From positions 4,092,001-4,156,000 of the forward strand of contig CM075991.1 of assembly GCA_038087875.1 (NCBI GenBank): a stretch of 64,000 bases of DNA, in the 5' to 3' direction. Position 1 is the first letter of the stretch. Every line of letters starts with the position of its first letter. This stretch comes from Malacoraja senta. Taxonomy: Eukaryota. Of this stretch, positions 7,081 to 64,000 are shown in pieces. The notes below the pieces were generated by a model. That model saw nothing but the letters and a program-made list of their open reading frames with translations. It had not been told where the DNA came from and made no database searches. Position numbers and translations under genes: made by a program.

Positions 7081-8699
7081 ACTTGTATATAATTTATGCT
7101 TTGGTGTATTACATGAGTCTATGTTCCTGATGTGCTGCTGCTAGCAAGATTTTTATTGCACCTGTACTCATACACTTGACAATAAACTCAACATGACGTG
7201 ACGTGACTTGAAGTTGCCACAACTTCCTGACACCACAAAAGGGCCTGTGGCAGTGATGCTCCTTCCGTTCATCCCTTGCCAATCCCTGACTTTGCTAGTT
7301 CCCAGTTTCACTCCAGTGTTTGCAGTGGCCAGATGTAACATGGCCGCAGGGAATGGTGACTCACCAAAGCTGAATGAAGCCTATATGTCCCCGCCTGTCC
7401 AATCTTACCACATTGCTCACACACTCCTCCCTCCAACATCTTCAGCCTGATGTCATGTGTGTAGGTGGTAGGGGTGGGGTGGATGAAAGGTGGGGTGGAA
7501 ACAGCTGCTCAGTTTATTCGGGGTAAGGTGCTTCAGGTGATATTGCAAAAAGCCGCAGCGTTGCAGGTTTCAATAAGTTCCCGGGCAAATTTCTACATTT
7601 CCGTCATGTTCATAAGCTTATAGAGCTGTGGAGAGAAATGGCAAGGAAATAGGCACTCTGGTCCATTGCGTCTATGCAATCAACTGCTTCGGGCAACAGT
7701 TCTCCTTCCGTGCCCTGCCGTGTCTGAAGAAGGGTCCCGACCCGAAACATCACCTTTCCATGTTCTATGGCGCAGAGTTGTTGCTTTGCAGCGTCAGAGA
7801 CCCAGGTTCAATCCTGACTACGGGTGCTGTCTGTACAGAGTGTGTACATTCTCCCTGTGACTGCATGAATTTTTTTCAAGACATTTTCAAGAAAACAAGA
7901 AATTGGGTTAATTTACAGCAGCCAGTTAACCTACCAACCTCCCAGCCTTTGGGATTTGGGATGAAACTGGAACAATTGGAAGGAATTCACTCGGTCACAG
8001 GGAGAACGTGCAAACTCAGACAGATGGCACCTGAAGTAAGGATTGAACCTGTATCACCTCGTCCCCAGCCAACAATGGAACATTGTGGGCTCCACCTTTC
8101 CCGAGTCATCAATTCAGGCTGTTTTGTTCTGTGCATTTTCATACCTTTAGCTTCCTACTCCCCGACTCTCAGTCTAATGAAGGGACTCGACTCGAAACGT
8201 CACCTATTTCTTCTCTCCAGAGATGCTGCCTGACCCTCTGAGTTACTGTGGCATTGTGTGTCTATCTTCGGTGTACGCCAGTATCTGCAGTTCCTTCCTT
8301 CACTAGCTGTGTCACTATTCAGAGGGGAGGAATTCAGATAAAGAAGCATGTATCATTGCTACACATTTCTACCATCTGCTCAGTATACTTTTATGCACGA
8401 CCTGCCAGATTTGTGCAGTCAATTATCTGTTCAATTCAAATCCAATTCAAAAGTAATATGTTTGTTTTTCTAAGAAGCAGATTTCTGCCGCGATCTATCA
8501 TCGAGCTCAGCTCGAGTGGGTCAATGATTCAGTGGTGTGAATGCGTAGGGTTCAATTGGCTGACCCATCCTCTAATGCCAAGCCTGTGTAAAATAGGAAA
8601 ACATTGTGTAACACCAATTCACCCCAGAGGATTTATTGCGCTTCTAATTTGTTATTAGCTTATAGTTCCAGATAATAGAACAAAGGATCTCTGTACTTT

Positions 8700-10768: not shown

Positions 10769-11488
10769 TAATTTACAGGGTGTAGCAAATATACAGGGTG
10801 TAATGAAAGGGATTAAAAGCACAGAATTCATAGTAACGAAAGCTTGCATCACAGGTGGAATATTGTCTCTTTCTGGGAACAATATTTAAGGAAAATTTTC
10901 AAAGCCTAGGAAAGAATATAGAGAAGTCTTTCCAAATGGAATGAGACCTCTCAGACTTGATAAACTGGGATTATTGTCTTTGGAGTGGATGAGGAAGAAG
11001 ACATTGAAAAATTACAAAGGTCATGATAGTGGAGACAAGGACAATCTATTTCCTTTGGCAAGAGACTTGGGAACCAAAGGACACCAATTTAAGAAAACTG
11101 GCGGATGCAAGCCAGGCAAGGAAATATTTTTTTGATCCAGACTGATGATTTTACACTGTCTGAAAAAGCAGTAATAACAGATTCAGAAATAATTCTCAGG
11201 AGTATTGAACAATAGCTTGAAAAGGAGAGAATTACAGGCACATGGATAGAACAGATTTGGAGGGATATGGACCAAACGTGGGCAGGTGGGACTAGTGTAA
11301 CTGGGACATGTTGGCCGGTGTGGACAGGTTGGGCTGGAGGGCCTGTTTCCACACTGTATCACTGTATCACTCTATGACTCTATCTACAGGGATTTGGGGG
11401 AAAGAGTGAGTGTCACAAGAACTCAGGAGCTTGCAATGGTGTCCTTTACCCATCTACGTCAGCCTTCCATCCTTCGTCTGACTGTTGC

Positions 11489-12046
11489 AAGGTCATGCTG
11501 CAATCATATAAGATGCTGGTGAGGCCACATTTAGAGTATGGTGTTCAATTTTGGTCACCATGTTATAGGAAAGATTTTGTCAAGCTTGAAAGGGTTCAGA
11601 GAAGATTTACCAGGATGTTGCCAGGACTCGAGGGACTGAGCTATGCGGAAAGGTCGAGGAGGCTAGGGCTTTATTCCTTGAAATGCAGGAGGATCAGGGG
11701 TGATCTTATAGAAGTGTACAAAACCATGGGAGGAATAGATCGGGTAAATGCACAGAGTATTTTGCCCAGAGTGGGAGAATCGAGAACCAGATGACATAGG
11801 TTTAAGGTGAAAGGGAAAAGATTTAATAGGAATCTGAGGGGTAACGTTTTCACACAAAGGGTGGTGGGTTTATGGAATGAGCTGCCAGAGTAATAAATAA
11901 TTAGACAGGTACTATACAGGGATACGATGGGTTTAGAGGGATATGGCCAAACGCAGGCAGGTGGGACTAGTGTAGATGGGGTATGTTGATGAGCGTGGGC
12001 AAGTTGGGCTGAAGGGCCTGTTTCTATGCTGTATGACTCCATGACT
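11489..12046 (+). mobile_element. CR1 LINE, 5'-truncated (ORF2 C-terminus plus 3' UTR)
   Basis: ORF 11495-11794 LVRPHLEYGVQFWSP...LERVQRRFTRMLPG. Confidence 0.92.
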
Positions 12047-12325
12047 GTGTACACCAGTGCCATTCCCTCACATTCACCCACTCTTGTTCTCCCTTGGCCT
12101 CCTGTCGCAGCAGAACGCAAGCCAGGCTGAAGACGATGGTAAGACAAGCCGAACAGGATCTGGGAGGGAGAGAGGGAAGAAGGGATTCGGCCCGAAACGT
12201 TGCCTATTTCCTTCGCTCCATAGATGCTGCCGCACCCGCTGAATTTCTCCAGCACTTTTGTCTACCTTTGATTTTCCAGCATCTGCAGTTCCTTCTTAAA
12301 CATGGTGTGTTAGTTCACCTTTCAT

Positions 12326-12580
12326 TGTGTCGGAAGGAACTGCAGATGCTGGTTTACATTGAAGATATATACAAAATGCTGGGGTAACTCAGCGGGTCAG
12401 GCAGCATCTCTGGAGAGGAGGAATGGGTGACGTTTCGGGTCGAGACCCTTCTTCAGACTGATCTCGACTCGAAATGTCACCCATTCCTTCTCTCCAGAGA
12501 CGCTGCCTGTCCCACTGAGTTACTCCAGCATTTTCTATCTACCTTTGATTTAAACCAGCATCTGCAGTTCTTTCCTACAC
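12326..12580. mobile_element. PLE-derived fold-back element (about 120-bp inverted arms)
   Basis: Left arm 'ggaaggaactgcagatgctggttt...gaatgggtgacgtttcgggtcgaga' is mirrored by 'tctcgactcgaaatgtcacccattcc...aaaccagcatctgcagttctttcc'. Confidence 0.85.
12424..12460 (-). ncRNA. Minimal type-I hammerhead ribozyme motif (PLE-associated)
   Basis: Minus strand reads cagt-CUGAAGA-A-GGGU-cucg-ACCC-GAAA-C-GUC-accca: conserved core, 4-bp stem II, palindromic ACGU in place of stem III, GUC triplet; stem I is only about 2 bp. Confidence 0.6.
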
Positions 12581-13919: not shown

Positions 13920-14661
13920 AATAGACAATAGACAATAGGCGCAGGAGTAGGCCGTTCGGCCCTTCGAGCCAGCACCGCCATTCATTGTAATCATTACTGA
14001 TCATCCACAATCAGTACCCCGTTCCTGCCTTCTCCCCATATCCCCTGACTCCGCTACTTTTAAAGAGCCCTATCTAGCTCTCTCTTGAAAGCATCCAGAG
14101 AACCTGCCTCCACCGCCCTCCGAGGCAGAGAATTCCTCAGACTCACCACTCTCTGTGAGAAAAAGTGTTTCCTCGTCTCCGTTCAAAATGGCTTACTCCT
14201 TATTCTTAAACTGTGGCCCTTGGTTCTGGACTCCCCCAATACCGGGAACATATTTCCTGCCTCTAGTGTGTCCAAGCCCTTAACAATCTTATATGTTTCA
14301 ATGAGATTCCCTCTCATCCTTCTAAACTCCAGAGTGTACAAGCCCAGCTGCTCCATTCTCTCAGCATATGACAGTCCCGCCATCCCGGGAATTAACCTTG
14401 TAAACCTACGCTGCACTCCCTCAGTAGCAAGAATGTCCTTCCTCAAATTAGGAGACCAAAACTGCACACAATGCTCCAGGTGTGGTCTCACCAAGGCTCT
14501 GTCCAACTGCAGAAGGACCTCTTTGCTCCAATATTCGATTCCTCTTGTTATAAAGGCCAACATGCCATTCGTTTTCTTCACTGCCTGCTGTACCTGCATG
14601 CTTACTTTCATAGACTGATGTACAAGGACCCCCAGATCCCATTGTACTTCCCCTTTTCCCA
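13920..14661 (-). mobile_element. CR1 LINE, 5'-truncated
   Basis: ORF 14183-14749 contains DLGVLVHQSMKVSMQVQQAVKK...LEHCVQFWSP; (CTATTGT)n-type tail at 13920-13938. Confidence 0.92.
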
Positions 14662-15015
14662 ACCCTGGCACCCTGGCCACTCCTCTCTTCCCCCCGCTCC
14701 CATCGGGCAAAAGGCAAAGAAGTGTGAAAACACACACCTCCAGATTCAAGGACCGTTTCTTCCGAGCTGTTATCAGGCAACTGAATCATCCTCTCAACAA
14801 CTCTGCAGCAGTCCTGAACTACTATCTACCTCATTGGTGACCCTCGGACTATCTTTGATCAGACTTTACTGGACTTTATCTTACACTAAACATTATTCAC
14901 ATTATTCCCTTTATCATGTATGTATACACTGTGGGTGGCTCGATTATAATCATGTATTGTCTTTCCGGTGAATGGTTAGCACGCAACAAAAGCTTTTCTC
15001 TGTACCTCAGTACCT
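14662..15015 (+). mobile_element. Rex1/Babar-like LINE 3' fragment
   Basis: Aligns by eye with the 3' part of 28770-29465 ('ctccagattca..ga...gctgttatcaggcaactgaa', 'aaaagcttttc..tgtacctc'). Confidence 0.7.
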
Positions 15016-32869: not shown

Positions 32870-33325
32870 ATGTTTAAGAAGGAACTGCAGATGCTGAAAA
32901 ATCGAAGGTAGACAAAAACGCTGGAGAAACTCAGCGGGTGAGGCAGCATCTATGGAGCAAAGGAAATAGGCAACGTTTCAGGCCAAAACCCTTCTTCAGA
33001 CTGTTGTGAAGGTGAGGGGGGGGGGGAGAGAGGGAAGAAGAAAGGAAGAGGTGGAGCCAGAGGGCTGAGGGAGAGCTGAGAAGGGGAGGAGAAAGTAAGG
33101 ACTACCTGAAATTAGAGACGTCAATGTTCATACCGCTGGGGTGCAAACTGCCCAAGCGAAATATGAGGTGCTGCTCCTCCAATTTACGGTGGTCCTCACT
33201 CTGGCCATGGAGGAGGCCCAGGACAGAAAGGTCGGATTCAGAATGGGAGGGGGAGTTGAAGTGCTGAGCCACCGGGAGATCAGGTTGGTTATTGCGAACC
33301 GAGCGGAGGTTTTGGGCGAAGCAAC
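32870..33325 (-). mobile_element. Penelope-like element 3' fragment (GIY-YIG C-terminus, hammerhead-bearing end)
   Basis: LRSVRNNQPDLPVAQHFNSPSHSESDLSVLGL...LEEQHLIFRLGSLHPSGMN; close to 57920-58334; hammerhead core at about 32969-33003. Confidence 0.9.
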
Positions 33326-37664: not shown

Positions 37665-39110
37665 TGACAACTCCCCTTCTCGATCACATTCTGACCTTTC
37701 TTTCCTGGGCCTCCTCCACTGTCAGAGTGAAGCCTCATGCAAATTAGAGGAACAGCACCTCATATTTTGCTTGGGAGGCTTATAACCTATGAACGTTGAT
37801 TATTGGGGTACCGCAAGGATCGGTGCTGGGTCCGCAGCTATTTACAATATATATCAATGATTTAGATGAAGGAATTAAAAGTAACATCAGCAAATTTTCA
37901 GATAACACAAAGCTGGGTGGCAGTGTGAACTGTGAGGAGGATGCTCTGAGAATGCAGGGTCACTTGGACAGGTTGGGTGAGTGGGCAGATGCATGGAGGA
38001 TGCAGTTTAATGTGGATAAATGTGAGGTTATCCACGTTGGTGGCAAAATTAGGAAGGCAGATTATTATCTCAATGGTGTCAAGTTGGGAAAAGGAGAAGT
38101 ACAACGGATCTCGGCGGGGGTCCTTGTTCATTAGTCACTGAAAGTAAGCATGCAGGTACAGCAGGCAGTGAAGAAAGCGAATGGCATGTTGGCCTTCATA
38201 ACAAGAGGAGTTGAGTATGGGTGCAAAGAGGTCCTTCTGCAGTTGTACAGGGCCCTAGTGTGACCACATTTGGAGTATTGTGTGCAGTTTTGGACTCCAA
38301 ATTTGAGGAAGGACATTCTTGCTATTGAGGAAGTGCAGCGTAGGTTCACAAGGTTAATTCCCGGGATGGCGGGACTGTCATATGTTGATAGAATGGAGCG
38401 GCTGGGCTTGTATACTCTGGAATTTAGAAGGATGAGAGGGAATCTTATTGAAACATGTAAGATTATTAAGGGTTTGGACATGCTGGAGGCAGGAAACATG
38501 TTGGGGGAGTTCAGAACCAGGGGCCACAGTTTAAGATAATGGGCAAGCCATTTATAATGGAGACGAGAAAATACTTTTTCACACAGTGTTGTGGGTCTGT
38601 GCGACTCTCTGCCTCAGAGGGTGGTGGAGGCCGGTTCTCTGCATGCTTTCAAGAGAGAGTTAGATAGAGCTCTTAAAGATAGTGGAGTCAAGGGATATGG
38701 GGAGAAGGCAGGAACGGAGTATGATTGTGGATGATCAGCCATGATCACATTGAATGGTGGTGCCTGCTCGAAGGGCCGAATGGCCGACTCCTGCACCTTT
38801 TAACTATTGTCTATTGTCTATTTCTAATTTCATGTAACCCTCCGCATTCCCTCTCTCCCCGTTTCCCCCACTCTCGTCCTTCTACCGGTTCCACTGTTTG
38901 CATCCTTGTATCCTGTCATTATCACGTCTTCCCCAGCCAACAATGACCCATTCCTTCCGTGGTCATCTGTTGCCCACCCGATTTGTTCTGGCCTTTTCCT
39001 ACTTCCAGTTCAACCCCTCCCTCTACTTTCAGTCTGAAGATGGGTTCCGACCCAAAACATCGCCGATTCGGTTTTTCAGAGATGCTGCCTGACCCGCTGA
39101 GTTACTCCAG
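37665..39110 (+). mobile_element. PLE 3' fragment interrupted by a CR1 insertion
   Basis: GIY-YIG C-terminal coding (SDLSFLGLLHCQSE...KLEEQHLIF) up to about 37800 resumes at about 38821 and ends in a decayed hammerhead motif (39034-39062). Confidence 0.78.
37801..38820 (+). mobile_element. CR1 LINE, 5'-truncated (RT C-half to 3' UTR)
   Basis: [23 protein letters not shown]...ISKFSDNTKLGG; EYCVQFWTPNLRKD; ctattgt tail. Confidence 0.93.
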
Positions 39111-39134: not shown

Positions 39135-39845
39135 ATCAAGTCAAGTCAAGTTCAAGTCAAGTTTCCTTTATTGTCATTCAGATCTTTCGGTCTGAACGAA
39201 ATTGTGATGCCTGCAGTCATACACAGAACCAATAATAACAAAACATACAATAAACACAAATTAAACATCCACCACAGTGAGTTCACCAAGCACACCCTCA
39301 CTGTGATGGAGGCAAAGTCTTGGTCTCCGTCTCTTCCCTCCTTGTTCTCCCTCTGCGCTGAGGCGATCGATCCAGGCCGAAGATGCCGCCCTCCAGTCCA
39401 GCGGACCTCCGTGGTGATGTCGCCGCCGCCGAAAGCCGGAACGCCGTCTCCGCTCCGAGACGGCCCGCCACAGCATCAGCTCCAGGTCCCGCAGTCTCCG
39501 CTCCGGACCACCGCCCCAGCTCCAGGCCCCGCAGTCTCCGCTCCGGACCCCGCTGTATCAGCTCCAGGCCCCGCAGTCTCCGCTCCGGACCCCGCTGTAT
39601 CAGCTCCAGGTCCCGCATTCTCCGCTCCGGACCCCGCTGCACCAGCTCCAGGTCCCGCAGTCTCCGCTCCGGACCCCGCTGCATCAGCTCCAGGCCGCCG
39701 CCGAACGCCAGAACGCCGCACCAGCAAGTCGGGCCACCGCTGCCTCAGCCCCGAAGACGGCCAGCCTCCCATTGGTAAGTCCTGGCTGGCTCGGGACTTA
39801 GCCTCGGGGTCGGTCGCAGGATGGAGGCGGCCAGTTCCGCCATTA
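39135..39845 (-). mobile_element. CpG-rich Rex1-tailed element containing a 42-bp minisatellite
   Basis: (TCAAG)n end, family 3' block and internal tandem array. Confidence 0.65.
39472..39696. repeat. 42-bp GC-rich minisatellite, about 5 units
   Basis: Units 'gcagtctccgctccggaccccgctgtatcagctccaggcccc' start at 39491, 39531, 39573, 39615 and 39657. Confidence 0.95.
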
Positions 39846-48468: not shown

Positions 48469-50270
48469 TAAGGTACCGGTACAACAGAAAGGTTGCTTGC
48501 CAGCAACTCACAGGCACATAAATTCAGATGACATACAGGCATAAAAATATATATCATTTATACAAGTCACTGAAAATAAATATACAATGCAAAAAAAAGA
48601 CGAGCATGCAAAAACACAATTAGTAACAAATCCATGCAAAGGTTGTGGAAACGTCTAGTTTATTGTCTCGTGTCGAGGTACGATGAAAATCATTTATTGC
48701 GTGTTCACCAGTCAGCAAAAAGATTATACATGATCACAATCAAGCCATGCACAGTGCACAGATACAAGGTAAAGGGAATAACATTTAGTGCAAAGTAATG
48801 TCCAATAAAGTCTGATTTAAGATAGTCTGAGGGTCTCCAATGAGGTAGATACTAGGTCAGGACTGCTCTCTAGTTGTTGATAGGATGGTTTAGTTGGTTC
48901 ATGTAGTCCTTCGTGTTCTGCTGTTGAGGTAGGATTTGGGTTGTGTAGGTCGATTCACGGACATGATAATAGTATGAAAATTGATATTCCTGAACCTGGT
49001 GGTGTGGAACTTCAGACTTCTGTACCTTCTGCCCGACAATAGCATCAAGAAGAGGTCATATTGGGCAACTCTCTGATTGAGCGAGCTTAAACTGACTAGG
49101 GCTTATAGGACTTAGGATAATCCCAGAAAATAGATCCAAAACACTGGCAATTTGTTCTCAATTCTCTTCATTTCACAGAATTGCTTAATGCAGAAATGTG
49201 TTCTTTCAGCCCATTTTGTTCATGTCACCAGTGAAACCTATCTGTGCTAATTCATTTTGCTTGAATTAGGCTCTTATCCCTTAATGTTGTTCATATCTAA
49301 GTAGCTGTCCAAATGCGTTTTTAAGCATTATAATTGTTTCTGCCTCTATCATCTCCTCTGATAGCTCATTCCAGATAACCTTCACAATCTGTCTAAAAAA
49401 CTAGCCTATCAGATCTCCTTTGCATTTATTTCCAATCACCCTTTAGTTATAGACTCTGCAGGCTAGGGGAAAGAAAAACTCTGCAAAACTCATCTATCCT
49501 CTCTCTGGCCTTCAGAATTTTACAAATCTCATTAAGATCACCCCTCAGCTTCTTGTGTTCCAATGAGAATAAGCCAAGTCTATGAAGGAACTGCAGATGC
49601 TGCAGATGAAGATAGACAGAAAATGCTGGAGTAACTGAAAATGCGGGGCAGTCTGAAGAAGGGTCTCAACCCGAAATATCACCTATTAGTTCTCTCCAGA
49701 GATGTTGCCTGTCCCACTGAGTTACTCCAGCATTTTGTGCCAAGAAGCCAAGTCTATCTCTGTATAATTACAGCCCTCCCGTCCAAGAAACATCTACGTA
49801 AATCTCTTCATTCTTCTTCTTAACGTTCCCACATTCTTCCTATAGTGAGGCAACCAGAACTATGCACAATACTCCAAGTGCTATGGAACCAATGTGTTGT
49901 ACTGTTGTAATACAAACTTCCAATTCTTATGCCCAATGCCTAGACCGTTGAAGGCAAAAATACCTAATGCATTCCGCACTATCCGATTCACTTTCAGTAT
50001 TGACGCTTTCTGTCAGCTCCGCACTTACACCCCAAGGTTCCTCTGTACATCAAAATCCCAAGGTCCATTCCATTTACTGTATATCCTACCAGAATTGACT
50101 TTATTGACCAGGAAGTGAAGCATTAATATATATCATCTCATAAAAGTAAATTGAAGTAATTGAACGTGAAGTTAAAATACAAAAAATCTTGCATGTGCTC
50201 ATTTATATATCTCTAATATATCTCTAATATATCTCTAATATCTCTAATATATATCTCTAATATTTAAAAG

Positions 50271-52345
50271 GAGTGAATTGGAACATGTTGTTTTATGGGA
50301 AGGATGTAGAAGAGAAATGGAGGACACTTAAAGGTGAAATTTTAAGAGTACAGAATCTTTATGTCCCTGTTCGGTTGAAAGGAAATAGTAAAAATTGGAA
50401 AGAGCCATGGTTTTCAAGGGAAATTGGACACTTGGTTCGGAAAAAGAGAGAGATCTATAATAATTATAGGCAGCATGGAGTAAATGAGGTGCTTGAGGAG
50501 TATAAAGAATTTAAACAGAATATTAAGAAAGAAATTAGAAAAGCTAAAAGAAGATATGAGGTTGCTTTGGCAAGTAAGGTGAAAGTAAATCCAAAGGTTT
50601 TCTACAGCTATATTAATAGCAAAAGGATAACAAGGAATAAAATTGGTCCATTAGAGAGTCAGAGTGGACAGCTATCTGCAGAGCCAAAAGAGATGGGGGA
50701 GATATTGAACAATTTCTTTTCTTCGGTATTCACCAAGGAGAAGGATATGGAATTAGGTGAGGTAAGGGAAACAAGCAGAGTAGCAATGGAAACTATGAGA
50801 TTCAAAGAAGAGGAGGTGCGGACACTTTTGAAAAATATGAAAACGGATAAGTCTCAATGTCCTGACAGGATATTCCCGAGGACATTGAGGGAAGTTAGTG
50901 TAGAAATAGCAGGGGCTATGACAGAAATATTTCAAATGTCATTAGAAACGGGAATAGTGCCGGAGGATTGGCGTACTGCGCATGTTGTTCCATTGTATAA
51001 AAAGGGTTCTAAGAGTAAACCTAGCAATTATAGACCTGTTAGTTTGACGTCAGTGGTGGGCAAATTAATGGAAAGGATACTTAAAGATAATATATATAAG
51101 CATCTGGATAAGCAGGGTCTGATTAGGAACAGTCAACATGGATTTGTGCCTGGAAGGTCATGTTTGACTAATCTTCTAGAATTTTTCGAAGAGGTTACTA
51201 GGGAAATTGATGAGGGTAAAGCAGTGGATGTTGTCTATATGGACTTCAGTAAAGCCTTTGACAAGGTTCCTCATGGAAGGTTGGTTAAGAAGATTAAATT
51301 GCTGGGTATTAATGGTGGAGTAGCAAGATGGATTCAACAGTGGCTGAATGGGAGATGCCAGAGAGTAATGGTGGATGGCTGTTTGTCAGGTTGGAGGCCG
51401 GTGACTAGTGGGGTGCCTCAGGGGTCTGTGTTGGGTCCACTGTTGTTTGTCATGTACATCAATGATCTGGATGATGGTGTGGAAAATTGGATTAGTAAGT
51501 ATGCAGATGATACTAAGATAGGTGGTGTGGTGGACAATGAAGTAGATTTTCAGTCTACAGAGAGATTTAGGCCATTTGGAAGAGTGGGCTGAAAGATGGC
51601 AGATGGAGTTTAATGCTGATAAATGTGAGGTACTACATCTCGGCAGGACAAATCAAAATAGGACGTACATGGTAAACGGTAGAGAATTGAGGAATGCAGT
51701 TGAACAGAGGGATCTAGGAATAACTGTGCATAGTTCCCTGAAGGTGGAATCTCATGTAGATAGGGTGGTAAAGAAAGCTTTTGGGGTGCTGGCCTTTATA
51801 AATCAGAGCATTGAATATAGAAGTTGGGAAGTAATGTTAAAATTGTACAAGGCATTGGTGAGGCCAATTCTGGAGTATGGAGTACAATTTTGGTCGCCTA
51901 ATTATAGGAAGGATGTCAACAAAATAGAGAGAGTACAGAGGAGATTTACTAGAATGTTGCCTGGGTTTCAGCAACTAAGTTACAGAGAAAGGTTGAACAA
52001 GTTTGGTCTTTATTCTTTGGAGCGCAGAAGGTTAAGAGGGGACTTGATAGAAGTCTTTAAAATGATGAGCGGGTTAGACAGAGTTGACGTGGATAAGCTT
52101 TTTCCATTGAGAGTAGGGAAGATTCAAACAAGGGGACATGACTTGAGAATTAAGGGACATAAGTTTAGGGGTAACATTAGTGGGAACTTCTTTACTCAGA
52201 GAGTGGTAGCTGTGTGGAATGAGCTTCCAGTGGAAGTGGTGGAGGCTGGTTCGATTTTATCCTTTAAAAATAGATTGGATGGGTATATGGACGGGAAAGG
52301 AATGGAGGGTTATGGTCTGAGTGCAGGTAGATGGGACTAGGGGGA
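50271..52345 (+). mobile_element. CR1 LINE, 5'-truncated, young; ORF2 (RT) with one frameshift near 51555
   Basis: ORFs 50273-51592 and 51576-52340: [52 protein letters not shown]. Confidence 0.97.
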
Positions 52346-52785: not shown

Positions 52786-53370
52786 AAGGGCCTGTCCCAC
52801 TTGGCCATCATTTGCGCGTCATTTACGCGACCTGGTAGCGTGTGGGTAGCGCGGTACGGGCGCATGGAGTGGCGTGGAGGAGTGTGGAGTTGCGCGCGTT
52901 ATCGCGCAGTGCTCCAGGAATTCAAAATCTTCGCGCACCACCGGCCTGTCACGTAAATGACGGCCAAGTGGTACACCCTGGCGCGGCGCAACGTCTCACC
53001 TCCAACAGCAGCAGAAGCAGACAAGCGATCGCCGAGCTCGGCCTGGGGCTCACAGCCGTTGCGGATCCGGATCCACCCCCACTCCTACTCCCAGAGCGGG
53101 GCCAAGACGATTGGAGATAGACACAAAATGCAGGAGTAACTCAGTGGGACGTTTTGGATCGAGATCCTTCTTCAGACTGAAGAAGAGTCTCAACCCGAAA
53201 CCTATCCATCCTTCTCTCCAGAGATGCCGGTCCCACTGAGTTACTCCTGCATTTTGTGTCCATTTCAAGCCGCTCAGGCTGCGCCCAGAAGACGCGGACG
53301 CGACCGTCGCAGCACTGGTCAGTCACTACCGGCCTGTTGCGTAAATGACGGCCAAGTGGGACAGGCCCTT
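52786..53370. mobile_element. Non-autonomous DNA transposon with TA duplication, inserted in a CR1 3' end and containing a PLE fold-back (about 53115-53262)
   Basis: 21-bp perfect TIR AAGGGCCTGTCCCACTTGGCC; TA on both sides; CR1 sequence 52560-52785 resumes at 53371-53530. Confidence 0.9.
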
Positions 53371-54873
53371 TAGATTTAGCTCTTAGGGCTAGAGGAATTA
53401 AGGAATATGTGGAAAAAGCCAAAACAGGGTACTGATCTGAGGTGATCAGCCATGATCATATTGAATGGCGGTGCTGGCTCGAATGGCCCACTCCTACTCC
53501 TGCATTTTCTGTGTTTCTATATTTCTATGTTTCAAACCCTTCCCTTTGGCCATGGATGTAGACCCTGTGGCCCCTATCCTTACAGTTTCCTTTCTTTATT
53601 GTCGCCAGTGGCTCATTGCTCTCAGAGCACATGAATGATTAACTCACCCATTTGGACCCCCACCTCTGGCTTTGCCCCCCTAACTGACCCACCGACGCAC
53701 TTCGGCTCAAAGAACAGCAGCTCCACGTAACATTTACATCTGCAGTTGTTTCCACACTGCGATGGAAAATATTTTGTGAACCCATTGATTTTAATGGGAT
53801 TAATTGCTTACATGTTCCGGGTTTTTTTGTGCGTAAGTATGTATTGCATGTTAAGTAATAACAACATCACTGCAGAGTAAGTCTTTCACCAATTGATGCA
53901 TGGAAAATTAGATAGGCTTCCCGTGTGAGAAATCGTGCACAGATTTCTCTCAGTAAACTCTCTCGTTATGCGGTTTCACTGGAAACTTTTTGATCTCACC
54001 CACCTCAGAAGGTCTCTCCGAATTAAGAAATATCGCGGATTTTTTTGTTTTTTTTGCGTGTGCCTGTGAAACCACCAAAATGCACAATGGAAAACTGGGC
54101 CAACAGCTGGTTAGGGTTTGCCATAGAGTTGACCCAAGTCCCTCATGGTTTCTCAGCAGACTGCATGTTTCCAGCGTGTATGGGGTAAATTCACAGCCCG
54201 GGCGGGCTCTGTATTGCTCCTTGCTCTGCTGCCGGCCTGTGTAACCTCAGTGCTGAAACTTTATACATTCCTCCTCAACTTGTTAAACAGGAATAAAATG
54301 GATTTGGTCGATCAGCCAGCAGGGAGGCGCGATAAATTGAGAAATCTGGCAACCAGCATAGGCCTTTTTAAACAAATATCGGCTACATTGCCTTGAAAAG
54401 ATGCCTTGCGCTTAACCCTATACGCTATGCCTGCAGTACGAGCATGGAAAGATAATTAGAACAAATGTTGCCTCAAAAAAATTAATAGGTGCATCACAAC
54501 ATGGAGTTGAAACTTTAATGACATGTCAAACACCTCTGGTGATGCTGTTTAAATTTCACTTACTCTAAGATCTCAGGGATAGCACAGTACACAGTATAGT
54601 TACTTCAAGTAACCCTTGCTTTCCCTCTCTCTCCATCCCCTCCCCCTTCCCAGTTCTCCAACCAGTCTTACTGTCTCTGAGCATTTTATCTCTGTTTGCT
54701 CTCTTGTTATCTTCTCCCAACTAACAATGATCTATTCAACATTTTCCTTGATCAACATTCCCTTTGTCCTGTTTTCACACCTTACTCTTCCTTATCTATA
54801 TACATCCTTATCTATATACTTCCCTCTCCCCTGATATCAGTCTGAAGAAGGGTCTCGAGCTGAAACATCACGC

Positions 54874-56096
54874 TGTTGCGGCCTGAACGAGGTCAGTAAA
54901 AGGCCAGACGCCAGGCGGGTTCAATTAGTAGACTTTAATCCTTACAGCGAGATCACACCACACACACACCTCGAGAGCACTAAATCCAGGGTCGTCTCCA
55001 AACCCCGTGGCAGACCAGTCCCCTGTCCCTCGCTCGGCGAGGGGGATGATCCAAGGAGTGGCCTACCCCCCAGGGACCGCCACATGACCCCCCCCCAAGT
55101 ACCCGAGACACGAAACGGACAGGAGGCCGTACACGGCGGCCAGCGCGGGTACACACCATGCCCTGCCCCGGAACAGGCAACTGACCAACAGGTGCATGGG
55201 ACCGAGTAACCAGAGGAGGTACCCTAGACAGAGGCCGCCCTCGCTTACGGGGCCGCGCTACCACACCGGCTGATCAATATCAATATGTGCTGGCTTCAAC
55301 CGCGCAACTGAAACAGTCTCATGCCGACCCCCCATGTCCAGGACGAAAGAGGATGAGCCATGTTCCAGGACCCGAAAGGGACCCTCGTACGGCCGCTGGA
55401 GAGGTGTCCGATGCGCATCCCTGCGCAGAAAAACGAACTGGCAGTCCACCAGGGCAGGCGGAACATGGGGACGGAAAGACCCATGACGAGACGTTGGCAC
55501 CGGCGCCAACTTGCCCACCGTGTGCCGAAGACGTTGCAGAGCGTCCGAAGGCTGCTCCACCTGACCACGTGCCGACGGGATGAACTCCCGGGTACCGTCA
55601 ACGGAGACCCATAAACCAACTCGGCGGAGGAGGAGGCTAAGTCCTCTTTGGGTGCGGTGCGGATCCCCAGCAAAACCCACGGCAGAGCGTCCACCCAGTC
55701 CGGATCCTTGAGCCGTGCCTTCAGGGCGTCCTTAAGTTGACGGTGAAACCGCTCCACCAAGCCGTTCGCCTGCGGGTGGTACGCCGTCGTGTGGTGCAGA
55801 CGAACACCCAGGAGACGTGCCATGGCCGCCCACAGCTCCGACGTGAACTGAGGCCCCCGGTCGGAAGTTATGTCGGGGTCACCAGTGTAGCGGCCTGAAC
55901 GAGGTCAGTAAAAGGCCAGACGCCAGGCGGGTTCAATTAGTAGACTTTAATCCTTACAGCGAGATCACACCACACACACACCTCGAGAGCACTAAATCCA
56001 GGGTCGTCTCCAAACCCCGTGGCAGACCAGTCCCCTGTCCCTCACTCGGCGAGGGGGATGATCCAAGGAGTGGCCTACCCCCCAGGGACCGCCACA
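54874..56096 (-). mobile_element. Internally deleted Ty3/Gypsy LTR retrotransposon
   Basis: LTRs 54874-55084 and 55886-56096 (211 bp, TG...CA, 2 mismatches); TSD ACGC; PBS 55872-55884 complementary to the tRNA-Trp 3' end; PPT 55088-55096. Confidence 0.96.
55258..55872 (-). pseudogene. Gypsy integrase, C-terminal half (frameshifted)
   Basis: DITSDRGPQFTS...TTAYHPQANGLVERFHRQLK and GPY/F module PLQRPYEGPFRV...VSVARLKPAH. Confidence 0.93.
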
Positions 56097-56235
56097 ACGC
56101 ATTCCTTCGCTCCAGGGATGCTGCCTGAGTTACTCCAGCATTTTGTGTCTATCTTTGATTTAAACCAGCATCTGCAGTTCCTTCCTGTACTACATAAAAT
56201 CCTGACTGCAGTTCCACCCAGCGACTTACATCATA

Positions 56236-58334
56236 TTTACTGCCGCCGTGACATCAACCGCCTCAACCTCTCCACTCCCCTGTCTCACTCCAATCTCTCC
56301 CCCCCTGAACGCACTGCCATCGACTCACTCCGCAACAACCTGGATTGGGTTATCAAACCCGCCATCAAGGGAGGTGCCGTGGTAGTCTGGCGCGTCGATC
56401 TCTACAAAGCTGAGGCCACGCGCCAACTCTCGGACACCTCCTCCTACTTACCCCTGGACCATGACCCCACTGACGAGCACCAGGTCACCGTCTCCAGCAC
56501 CAGCACCGACTTCATCCACTCCCACGCCCTGCCCGACTGAGCCTCATCGTTCCCCAGCCCCGCACAGCCCGCTTTTACCTTCTCCCCAAAATCCACAAAC
56601 CTGACTGTCCCGGTAGACCCATTGTCTCTGCCTGTTCGTGCCCCACCGAACTCATCTCCACCTACCTCGACTTCATCCTATCCCCCTTGGTTAAATCCCT
56701 CCCTACGTATGTCAAGACACCTCAGACACTCTCCGTCGTCTCCGCGCATTCCACTCTCAAGGCCCTCACCCCCTCATCTTCACCATGGACGTCCAGTCAT
56801 TGTACACCTCCATCCCCCACCAGGATGGTCTCGAAGCCCTCCGTTTTTTCCTCGACCGAAGAAGCAACCTATACCCAGCCACTGACACCCTCCTCCACCT
56901 AGCGGAGCTTGTCCTTACCCTCAATAACTTCTCATTTGACTCCTCCCATTTCCTCCAAATACAAGGCGTAGCTATGGGCACACGCTTGGGCCCCAGCTAC
57001 GCCTGCCTCTTTGTCGGTACGTAGAACAATCCTTGTTCAATGCGTACCAGGGCCCTATCCCCGACCTCTACCTCCGCTACATCGATGACTGTTTTGGTGC
57101 CACATCCTGCACCCACACACAACTGACTGACTTCATCCGCTTCACCACTAACTTCCATCCGGCACTCAAATACACCTGGACCATTTCCGACACTTCCCTA
57201 CCATTCCTTGACCTCACTATCTCCATCGCAGGTGATAGACTTCTTACCGACATCCACTACAAACCTACCGACTCCCATGGCTATCTGGACTACACTTCTT
57301 CCCACCCTGCTTCCTGTAAGGACTCCATCCCCCACTCCCAATTCCTCCGTCTACGCCGCATCTGCTCCCAGGATGAGGTGTTCCACACCAGGGCATCCGA
57401 AATGTCCTCATTCTTCAGGGAACGGGGGTTCCCCTCCTCCACCATAGATGAGGCTCGCACCAGGGTCTCTGCCATACCCGCAACACTGCTCTCTCTCCCC
57501 ATCCCCCCATTCACAACAAGGGCAGAGTCCCCCTAGTCCTCACCTTTCACCCCACCAGCCGTCACATACAACAAGTGATCCTCTGTCAGTTTCGCCACCT
57601 CCAACATGACCCCACCACTCGCCACATCTTCCCATCTCCCCCATGTCTGCCTTCCGCAAAGACCGCTCCCTCCGTAACTCCCTTGTCAATTCTTCCCTTC
57701 CCTCCCGTACCACCCCCTCCCCGGATACTTTCCCTTGCAACCGCATGAGATGCAACACTTGTCCCTTCACCTCCCCCCTCCACTCCATTCAAGGACCTAA
57801 GCAGTCGTTCCAGGTGTGACAGAGGTTCACCTGCATCTCCTCCAACCTCATCTATTGCATCCGCTGCTCTAGAACCCGGCTGATCTACATCGGTGAGACC
57901 AAGCGGAGGCTTGGCGATCGTTTCGCCGAACACCTCTGGTCGGTCCGCAATAACTAACCTGACCTTCCGGTGGCTCAGCACTTCAACTCCCCATCCCATT
58001 CCGTATCCGACCTCTCTGTCCTGGGTCTCCTCCATGGCCACAGCCGAGCAACACCGGAAATTGGAGGAAATGCACCTCATATTCCGCTTGGGCAGTCTAC
58101 ATCCTGGGGGCTTGAACATTGAATTCTCCCAATTCCTGCTAGCCCTTGCTGTCCCCTCCCCTTCATCAGCCCTCTGGTTGTCTCCTCCCCTCCCCCAGCC
58201 CTCGGGCTCCTCCGCGTCTTTTTTCCTTTCTTCTCCCCAGTCTGAAGAAGGGTTTCGGCCCGAAACGTTGCCTATTTCCTTCGCTCCATAGATGCTGCTG
58301 CACCTGCTGAGTTTCTCCAGCATTTTTGTGTACC
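56236..58334 (+). mobile_element. Penelope-like retroelement (Neptune type), 5'-truncated, disrupted RT plus GIY-YIG ORF
   Basis: [44 protein letters not shown], Cys linker CNRMRCNTC, NLIYCIRC...YIGETKRRLGDRFAEH; hammerhead core at 58242-58269. Confidence 0.95.
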
Positions 58335-63119: not shown

Positions 63120-63370
63120 ACCATCCTCACAGAACCTCATTCATTCCTTGTACCTTTTCATACCTTTAGTTTCCCTCTCCCCTGACTCTCAGTCTGACAA
63201 AGGGTCTCGACCTGAAACGTCACCTATTCCCTTTTCTCCAGAGATGCTGCCAGACCCCTGAGTTACTCCAGCATTTGTGTCTGAAGAAGGGTCTTGACCC
63301 AAAACGTCACCTATTCTTTTTCTCCGGAGATGCTGCCTGACTCATTGACTTACTCCAACATTTTGTGCTT
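63120..63370 (+). mobile_element. Tandem pair of PLE 3' termini
   Basis: Two direct units, each with a decayed hammerhead core (about 63194-63221 and 63281-63308) followed by 'acctattc...ctcc.gagatgctgcc'. Confidence 0.8.
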
Positions 63371-64000
63371 ATCGAAGTTTAAAAACATTATTTATTGTTT
63401 GGTCGTCATTTCCCATTTTCCCAATAAAATTAAACCTGGGTAGCTGAACAAAACAATTCATCGCCCGCGAGGCAGTACAAGATTTCAAAACATTATTTAT
63501 AGTTTGTAGGCCATTTTTCATTTTCCCAAATAAAATGAATATTAGGTTGCTCCAGAAACCAATCCTTCAGTCACAAGTCAGCATCAAGCTAGATATCTCT
63601 CTGAAGCTGGGGAAATATTCATCAATTTCAAAATCAAAAAAGACTAATTTACATCAAGTAAAAGCGAAAGATTATGACAGAACCAGAATTGAAATGAAGA
63701 TCAAAAACAGAAAATGCTGAAATACTCAGCAGGTAAGGTAGCCTCTGTGGAAGGAGAGACAAGAACCAATGTTTCAGGTCAATGACCCTTCCTCAGGACT
63801 TTTATTGTCAGCATCCCCTTTTGCACCATTCCTCTACACTTAAGATAGACATAAAATGCTGAAGTAACTCAGCGGGTCAGGCAGCATCGCTGGAGAAACG
63901 GAATAGGTGACATTTCGGATTGTAACCCTTCTTCAGGAAGGGTTACTTATCTGAGGAAAGACATTCTTGCCATAGAGGGAGTACAGAGAAGGTTCACCAG

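Follow-up and report, generated by a model that had tools for sequence, protein, structure and literature searches.

The hammerhead ribozymes of metazoan Penelope elements (Cervera and De la Pena 2014, PMC4209133) have a single nucleotide separating positions 9 and 10.1, a G10.1–C11.1 pair and a palindromic 15.2–16.2 stretch, with a helix I of 2 bp in Drosophila virilis, where an intron ends at helix I. Similar motifs occur in the Xena, Poseidon and Neptune elements of fishes, mostly as dispersed single copies, and cleavage was nil for the monomer and low for the dimer. In the Penelope element of D. virilis, transcription starts within the terminal repeat, from an internal promoter (PMC2377424), and Neptune and Nematis elements are marked by a CX2-5CxxC linker (Craig et al. 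2021, PMC8557442). For PAc, a Poseidon element of Anolis carolinensis, uncleaved RNA is the main template and two internal starts of reverse transcriptase (RT) make the tail (Frangieh et al. 2024, PMC11167929). Short non-coding hammerhead units of animals that are related to Penelope termini, the non-LTR retrozymes, are also present in a cartilaginous fish (bioRxiv 10.64898/2026.07.22.740005).

The motif family described here, from a 64-kb stretch of DNA that was analysed at its full length (the window) and from the 1.94-Gb genome around it, is like the minimal hammerheads of Penelope termini in its core, the nucleotide between 9 and 10.1, the G10.1–C11.1 pair, the palindrome and the absence of a stem III, and also in that few copies sit in full elements and most are dispersed singles (PMC4209133). 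It differs from those of Schistosoma in having a stem II of 4 bp instead of 7–8 bp and a stem I of 2 bp instead of 4–5 bp, the shorter stem I being shared with the D. virilis variant, and no cartilaginous fish is named in the supplement text of that paper which we searched. Like the EN+ Neptune-type elements, the host element has RT plus a GIY-YIG domain at the C-terminus in one frame with a CX2-5CxxC linker, partial tandems, inverted 5′-truncated copies, a tail of 30–40 bp and a hammerhead in the terminal repeat, but unlike them as described, it has left frequent target duplications of 10–15 bp, often seen with the short copies that we call stubs (PMC8557442). Like PAc, it has a pair of 3′ ends behind the hammerhead that are separated by the length of the tail, and uncleaved RNA as the likely template, although PAc belongs to the Poseidon clade and our element is of Neptune type by its linker, and the PAc ORF starts inside stem II whereas here the first ATG lies about 160 nt behind the core (in the young unit at locus L023; PMC11167929). 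The stubs also resemble the retrozymes as short non-coding hammerhead units related to Penelope termini, but retrozymes are defined by tandem organisation (bioRxiv 10.64898/2026.07.22.740005) and the copies here are dispersed stubs or head-to-head pairs. Our reading, to which we assign a probability of roughly 0.85, is that the motif is the minimal hammerhead of the terminal repeat of an EN-bearing Penelope-like element (PLE), Neptune-type by its cysteine linker, and that the dispersed copies are stubs of 95–135 bp which were likely copied from uncleaved RNA and are likely inert.

Anatomy of the motif and its copies in the window

The motif opens with G2.2–U2.1 and CUGAAGA. An extra A leads into a stem II of 4 bp (GGGU/ACCC or GGGU/GCCC) capped by a 4-nt loop, after which come GAAA, C-G-U-H and the A/G-C that closes a stem I of 2 bp; there is no stem III. 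Scanning the window with a 27-letter motif returned 28 copies having no more than five mismatches to the 23 fixed letters (two exact, four with one mismatch, six with two, eight with three, six with four and two with five), compared with a shuffled background of 0.02 copies per 64 kb in 50 dinucleotide-model controls scanned at the same threshold. An earlier note on this DNA had claimed more than 15 recurrences, and all 21 places that it named (five as intact and 16 as decayed) carry the motif to within 4 nt, with seven more added by our scan (378−, 1459−, 1503+, 12174+, 53149−, 60128+ and 63910−). Its five supposedly intact cores fared less evenly: those at 12430–12456(−) and 58242–58268(+) are complete, retaining the core, the 4-bp stem II with G10.1–C11.1, the ACGU palindrome and the 2-bp stem I, and those at 7724, 32973 and 54842 are defective. 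The whole motif is kept in two of the 28 window copies and the core letters alone in 12, and no pair of intact copies on the same strand was found within the window when all 28 were compared.

The flagship copy is a complete motif of subfamily A at 12427–12458 on the reverse strand: the GU of stem I is at 12458–12457, the core CUGAAGA at 12456–12450, the extra A at 12449, stem II (GGGU/ACCC) with its CUCG loop at 12448–12437, GAAA at 12436–12433 and C-G-U-C17 at 12432–12429, followed by the predicted cut between 12429 and 12428 and the AC of stem I at 12428–12427. It lies in a Penelope terminal stub of about 135 bp with the long 3′ end, or tail (12327–12461, −), beside an inverted, 5′-truncated second stub copy (12455–12580, +). 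The other complete copy, of subfamily B, is at 58240–58271(+) with a predicted cut between 58269 and 58270. Among the defective copies, the one at 7722–7753(+) has core and stem II present and the palindrome lost (ACAU), the one at 32970–33001(−) has G10.1–U11.1, and copy 54842 has lost G10.1–C11.1, one further stem II pair and the palindrome. The remainder include a subfamily B stub truncated inside the core, with CUG missing (12174–12303, +), head-to-head pairs of decayed copies at 378–450 (378− and 424+) and 53149–53203 (53149− and 53177+), a head-to-head fold-back of two decayed stubs at 1386–1595 (1459− and 1503+), and two stubs in tandem on one strand at a spacing of 87 nt (63194 and 63281, within 63145–63373, +), both with a broken core (G8, G12). 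Further decayed copies are at 2434+, 5032+, 8174+, 24347−, 24467+, 39034+, 44382+, 46119−, 46469+, 46648+, 49653+, 60128+, 60803− and 63910−.

Other repeats are interspersed with these copies. The stub containing copy 54842 is split into a 5′ half (54835–54873, +) and a 3′ half (56097–56184) by an internally deleted LTR element inserted just behind its cut site (54874–56096), which has 211-bp repeats with TG...CA ends (54874–55084 and 55886–56096; 99% identical), a 4-bp target duplication (ACGC) and an integrase remnant (55299–55904, −). Two long LINE-type reverse transcriptase frames lie at 50261–52340 (RVT_1 E 2e-29 for the first), with more LINE-type RT fragments at 11378–11794, 14183–14785 and 38131–38613, and a 21-bp tandem array of at least nine copies at 39475–39726.

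The identification as a hammerhead holds in its main parts. The core CUGANGA/GAAA/NUH in type I order, as the earlier note had it, is found in the 12 window copies and in all of the young element copies displayed, and the reduction of stem III to a palindrome can be seen in the ACGU of the majority motifs of all lineages. One nucleotide between 9 and 10.1, plus G10.1–C11.1, is likewise part of the majority motif of all three lineage groups, and the extra A is no special variant, as had been proposed, because it is a conserved feature already listed for Penelope hammerheads (PMC4209133). The caution that stem I has only about 2 bp was well placed: it consists of G-C plus U-A or U-G, and its pairing is absent from every predicted fold that we computed. 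Covariation of stem II across subfamilies is not supported, as the two forms (GGGT-ctcg-ACCC and GGGT-ttcg-GCCC) differ by a one-sided change from U-A to U-G which is not compensatory. More generally, the majority motifs of the three groups differ at five of 36 letters (the first letter, loop II, 11.4, 17 and 1.1) and at none in the core, with both stem changes being U-A versus U-G, and the consensuses of these closely related lineages contain no compensatory pair changes, only one-sided U-A/U-G ones. Such differences are compatible with a retained ribozyme, yet they are not covariation, and the predicted fold therefore rests on the core letters and on precedent. It should also be noted that conservation between lineages is about equal in the motif and in the 65 nt that follow it, so conservation alone is no proof of ribozyme function. 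The assignment of the motif as a minimal type I hammerhead of Penelope-like termini is nonetheless supported. Dimer cleavage is reportedly the subject of a paper by Lunse, Weinberg and Breaker, which may describe exactly this variant.

No hammerhead model was returned at E ≤ 10 among the 26 matches of an Rfam scan, and the microRNA-like matches at 12384–12524 were rejected as they represent the fold-back formed by the flagship stub and its inverted neighbour. A different arrangement, in which cleavage would fall directly upstream of CUGA (AUC/CUC before AGU), was rejected by eye, since neither stem I nor stem III can pair in it. When families with another stem II sequence were sought, 1,477 matches were obtained against 179 for the control, and those listed mostly belong to one passenger family with an A-A mismatch in stem II. 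At all ten loci displayed (L203, L208, L210, L217, L218 and L226–L230; G000 C1), a head-to-head fold-back of two stubs, one of which has the mismatch, is embedded in a larger repeat whose flanks are common to the loci on either side. We read this as another element having taken up a Penelope stub and spread it as a passenger, probably in about a thousand copies.

The Penelope-like host element

The complete subfamily B motif belongs to a 5′-truncated and frameshifted PLE (56239–58334, +) comprising RT, a cysteine linker, a GIY-YIG region and the 3′ terminus, in which it is found about 105 nt past the stop codon and is preceded by a pyrimidine tract and CAG. Over 2,124 nt this copy is 94.9% identical to a young unit at another place in the genome, and it matches amino acids 202–848 of the L035 frame in several frames. 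The copy with G10.1–U11.1 sits in the 3′ end of a related element (32871–33320, −), consisting of the GIY-YIG C-terminus (82% amino acid identity) and the terminus. Of 37,004 candidate relatives of the window frame at 56940–57533, the 150 best scored were considered and 20 loci were taken, mainly for their long open frames, and in these the motif lies about 110–120 nt behind the stop codon. Young tandems at L023, L026, L027, L032 and L039 have one motif per unit of 3.5–4.1 kb, and partial tandems form pseudo-LTRs at the same five loci and at L030, all of which were picked for long open frames. Natural tandems of the young subfamily B terminus (38-nt and 173-nt) are found at G000 C1:3997403–3997472 and C1:3601825–3602029. 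That Penelope termini carry the motif, as first proposed, is confirmed by its place behind the stop codon in the window and its single occurrence in each young tandem unit; it sits in the terminal repeat, on the sense strand.

RT and, at the C-terminus, a GIY-YIG domain share one open frame of 848 aa in L035 and 803 aa in L036, for which the Pfam scores both fall below the curated thresholds (RVT_1 E 4e-6, 27.1 bits against a cut-off of 29.6; GIY-YIG E 9e-4, 19.9 against 22.6). Pfam returned no family for the five stretches of broken Penelope frames in the window, which were identified via these intact relatives. The L035 frame has a C-x4-C-x2-C linker at amino acid 715, and cysteines plus two histidines around a GIY-YIG-like YIG were recognised by eye (the CX2-5CxxC linker and CCHH features). 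Judged by this linker, the host would be an EN+ Penelope-like element of Neptune type. Coding sequence accompanies the motif more widely, as 43 of 412 sampled copies are joined to a GIY-YIG C-terminus (55–100% amino acid identity, with 86–230 nt from stop to motif); both stub subfamilies derive from coding lineages, and each of the stub types seen is found joined to coding sequence as well. What recurs in the window is an abundant and already explained feature, minimal hammerheads in Neptune-type Penelope termini that have been scattered as short stubs. We note that at L028 (1622–5578) LINE endonuclease and RT are continuous with Penelope RT and GIY-YIG in a single open frame of 1,318 aa; the likeliest origin is that a young Penelope element inserted in frame into a young LINE.

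Stub boundaries and the origin of the stubs

The ends of the stubs were mapped in 98 subfamily B copies chosen by a 3′ anchor behind the cut site, which occurs 24,099 times in the genome, taking the first places in the first 8.3 Mb of one contig. On a scale where C3 is 0 and the first base after the cut is +28, 19 copies start beyond −370, eight at −369 to −100 and none at −99 to −17; two start at −16 to −7, 31 at −6 to 0 and 22 at +1 to +10; and four start at +11 to +25, six at +26 to +32 and six further in. A peak of 5′ ends at the cut site was accordingly rejected (6/98 at +26 to +32 versus 31/98 at −6 to 0), and five of the six ends there are inversion joints. A cleaved template would give copies starting at +28, and as these are rare, uncleaved RNA is indicated as the template. 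The 3′ ends fall into two groups about 34 nt apart, with 64 at +0 to +3 relative to the anchor, 29 at +31 to +39 and five between. An inverted arm is present in 34 of the 98 copies, and flanks share 10–21 letters in 21 of the 32 non-inverted copies starting at −6 to +10.

A pile-up of 5′ ends just before CUGA implies that either the RNA ends at this point or copying meets a hard stop. The letters TCAGT at this position fit the initiator consensus, and a long pyrimidine tract with CAG, resembling a splice acceptor, directly precedes the motif in all lineages (for example, L023:1720–1775 and 58150–58241 of the window). We lean slightly towards an initiator-like transcription start at TCAGT over a stop at the pyrimidine tract or CAG. 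By analogy with the anole element PAc, RT would start inside the RNA at two sites behind the hammerhead, and with a transcript beginning at TCAGT it would reach the RNA end after 95–135 nt. This would account for the large excess of stubs over coding copies; copies of coding length would then come only from read-through tandem RNA. In several stubs (L125, L144, L148 and L155) the initial letters are present a second time, as a short duplication immediately upstream of the 5′ end, which looks as though copying had restarted at the end of the template. The young unit also has a donor-like AAG-GTATG on the first ATG of the long frame (L023:1926–1960), and back-splicing from this to the CAG would give a circle of about 160 nt with one hammerhead; of 67 joints in contigs presumed to be RNA, 30 were displayed, and none of these was of GT..AG type and led to the CAG preceding the motif or started from AAG-GTATG.

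These signals bear on an alternative that we consider unlikely but the best of those weighed, namely that the motif is a relic whose letters are kept as a promoter, splice acceptor, protein-binding or RT-start signal, and that even the copy in the active element never cleaves. Besides the initiator-like TCAGT after a pyrimidine tract and CAG in all lineages, it could draw on the tail of the long stub at L023:1770–1905, which can pair with UGAAGAAGG of the core (z −2.4) in a fold that would hide the ribozyme, on the passenger family, which spread despite its A-A mismatch in stem II, and on PAc, whose ribozyme mutants show normal insertion and for which RNA-seq ends at the cut site were not found (PMC11167929). 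However, every difference between the lineage majority motifs is at a position where hammerheads tolerate change, and the motif class is found across Penelope clades with cleavage measured in several (PMC4209133, PMC11167929). We retain the reading of the motif as a minimal hammerhead. In the active element it would cut weakly, as a dimer via the ACGU palindrome, and would probably need the element protein to do so.

The sharp and repeated boundaries, together with the target duplications, might instead be taken to mean that the short copies do not derive from coding elements but form an independent non-autonomous family, either a SINE or a non-LTR retrozyme, which has source copies of its own and is amplified as a unit. 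Contigs of three other organisms have loose ends at the same boundaries (before 1770–1775 and behind 1869 and 1904 of L023), and in a run from another organism (X3), compared with L023:1500–2400, joints go from 1903–1913 back to 1770 with 7–27 letters between, which suggests retrozyme-like tandem stub units of about 150–165 nt in that organism; a link between retrozymes and Penelope termini has also been published (bioRxiv 10.64898/2026.07.22.740005). We regard such a family as improbable here, since every stub type seen is also attached to coding sequence, 27 of the 98 copies reach more than 100 nt further upstream into the element, and the copies are dispersed monomers or head-to-head pairs and not arrays. 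No retrozyme-like tandem arrays were found in the window or among the first 100 places listed, which held, respectively, one broken pair and, as judged by eye, two same-strand pairs less than 500 nt apart. The stubs are better read as truncated copies of the PLE terminus.

Abundance, folding and decay of the dispersed copies

The exact motif pattern has 55,631 matches in the genome compared with none for the reversed control, and a fuller descriptor, requiring a stem I of 2 bp, three pairs in stem II, the palindrome and H17, has 45,118, or about one per 43 kb. This descriptor search was proposed in the earlier note, and its expectation of a reservoir far larger than the number of coding PLEs is supported by this figure and by the element's C-terminal coding sequence being found within 900 nt upstream in 8/96 copies from the window and a random sample. 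Published numbers are lower, at about 4,000 motifs for coelacanth and 9,000 for Xenopus, though with different descriptors (PMC4209133). Over the five largest contigs, 40 stretches of 10 kb were sampled at even spacing, and in these 120 stubs were found by the downstream part alone; this extrapolates roughly to half a million stubs genome-wide, and 10 of the 120 keep the full descriptor.

Predicted folding does not favour the ribozyme in the dispersed copies. At the flagship, 12455–12580 and 12327–12452 form a 126-bp fold-back, 86% complementary, in which stem II, GAAA and the cut site are paired up, and the region is predicted to be one long hairpin (−188.6 kcal/mol, z −23.4). The predicted probability of stem II in context is 0.000 for the flagship (12430−) and 0.003 for 58242. 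For the bare motifs, the hammerhead dimer has −4.1 and −5.1 kcal/mol compared with −21.1 and −24.8 for the best co-fold, and in two close natural tandems the gap between the dimer and the more stable best fold is 24.5 and 14.7 kcal/mol, with an energy model that omits core tertiary contacts, Mg2+ and protein.

The motif contains three CpGs, and decay was counted in 77 subfamily A copies (97 of 152 having been kept after an identity filter). The catalytic G12 is changed in 21/77, C11.1 in 19/77, C15.2 in 20/77 and G16.2 in 29/77, compared with 16/77 and 17/73 for the G of neutral CpGs in loop II and downstream, respectively. There is no sign that G12 is protected in these 77 copies, and since it is lost as fast as a neutral CpG, the dispersed copies look like debris. 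Non-CpG core positions of subfamily A are slightly less changed than those downstream (50/759 or 6.6% versus 398/4163 or 9.6%, p 0.009), a gap which the filter on identity in the compared region and the mixture of subfamilies can cause. The core of subfamily B is kept worse than the downstream part (8.0% versus 1.2% changed), as 5′ truncation predicts.

The earlier note also raised the possibility that dispersed copies cut host intronic RNA. Intact copies would then be working ribozymes acting on host pre-mRNA, either as dimers with a same-strand neighbour or with the help of the element protein or a host chaperone, and cutting with protein help would be a new cost of transposon activity. The many copies that keep the full descriptor, the anole element hammerhead which cuts when its protein is added (PMC11167929) and the first 100 places listed, where two intact pairs on one strand and no more than 500 nt apart were recognised by eye, speak for this. 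Against it, the monomer has no stem III of its own and only 2 bp of stem I, near same-strand partners are rare and the intact copies in the window include no pair on one strand, fold-backs are frequent, the modelled dimer lies far above the best folds with stem II hardly formed in context, and G12 decays at the neutral CpG rate. We consider host cutting very improbable, and on these models and counts the dispersed copies probably do not cut host RNA. Slightly less credible again is the idea that together the roughly 45,000 intact hammerheads make up a nuclease array that is latent and switched by protein, in which, on expression of the young element, its protein folds any stub-bearing transcript, the stub including the RT-start region, into a cutting form, so that element bursts would cleave thousands of host pre-mRNAs, with the fold-back arms and CpG decay being what disarms them.

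On our preferred reading of the stubs as likely inert copies of a PLE terminus, these findings extend the published motif class to another very high-copy family. The tens of thousands of young stubs are a sharp record of where copying starts, at two sites, and of where it stops, immediately ahead of CUGA instead of at the cut site. This record fits the one in vitro study, and the role of Penelope hammerheads is testable with near-identical natural tandems.
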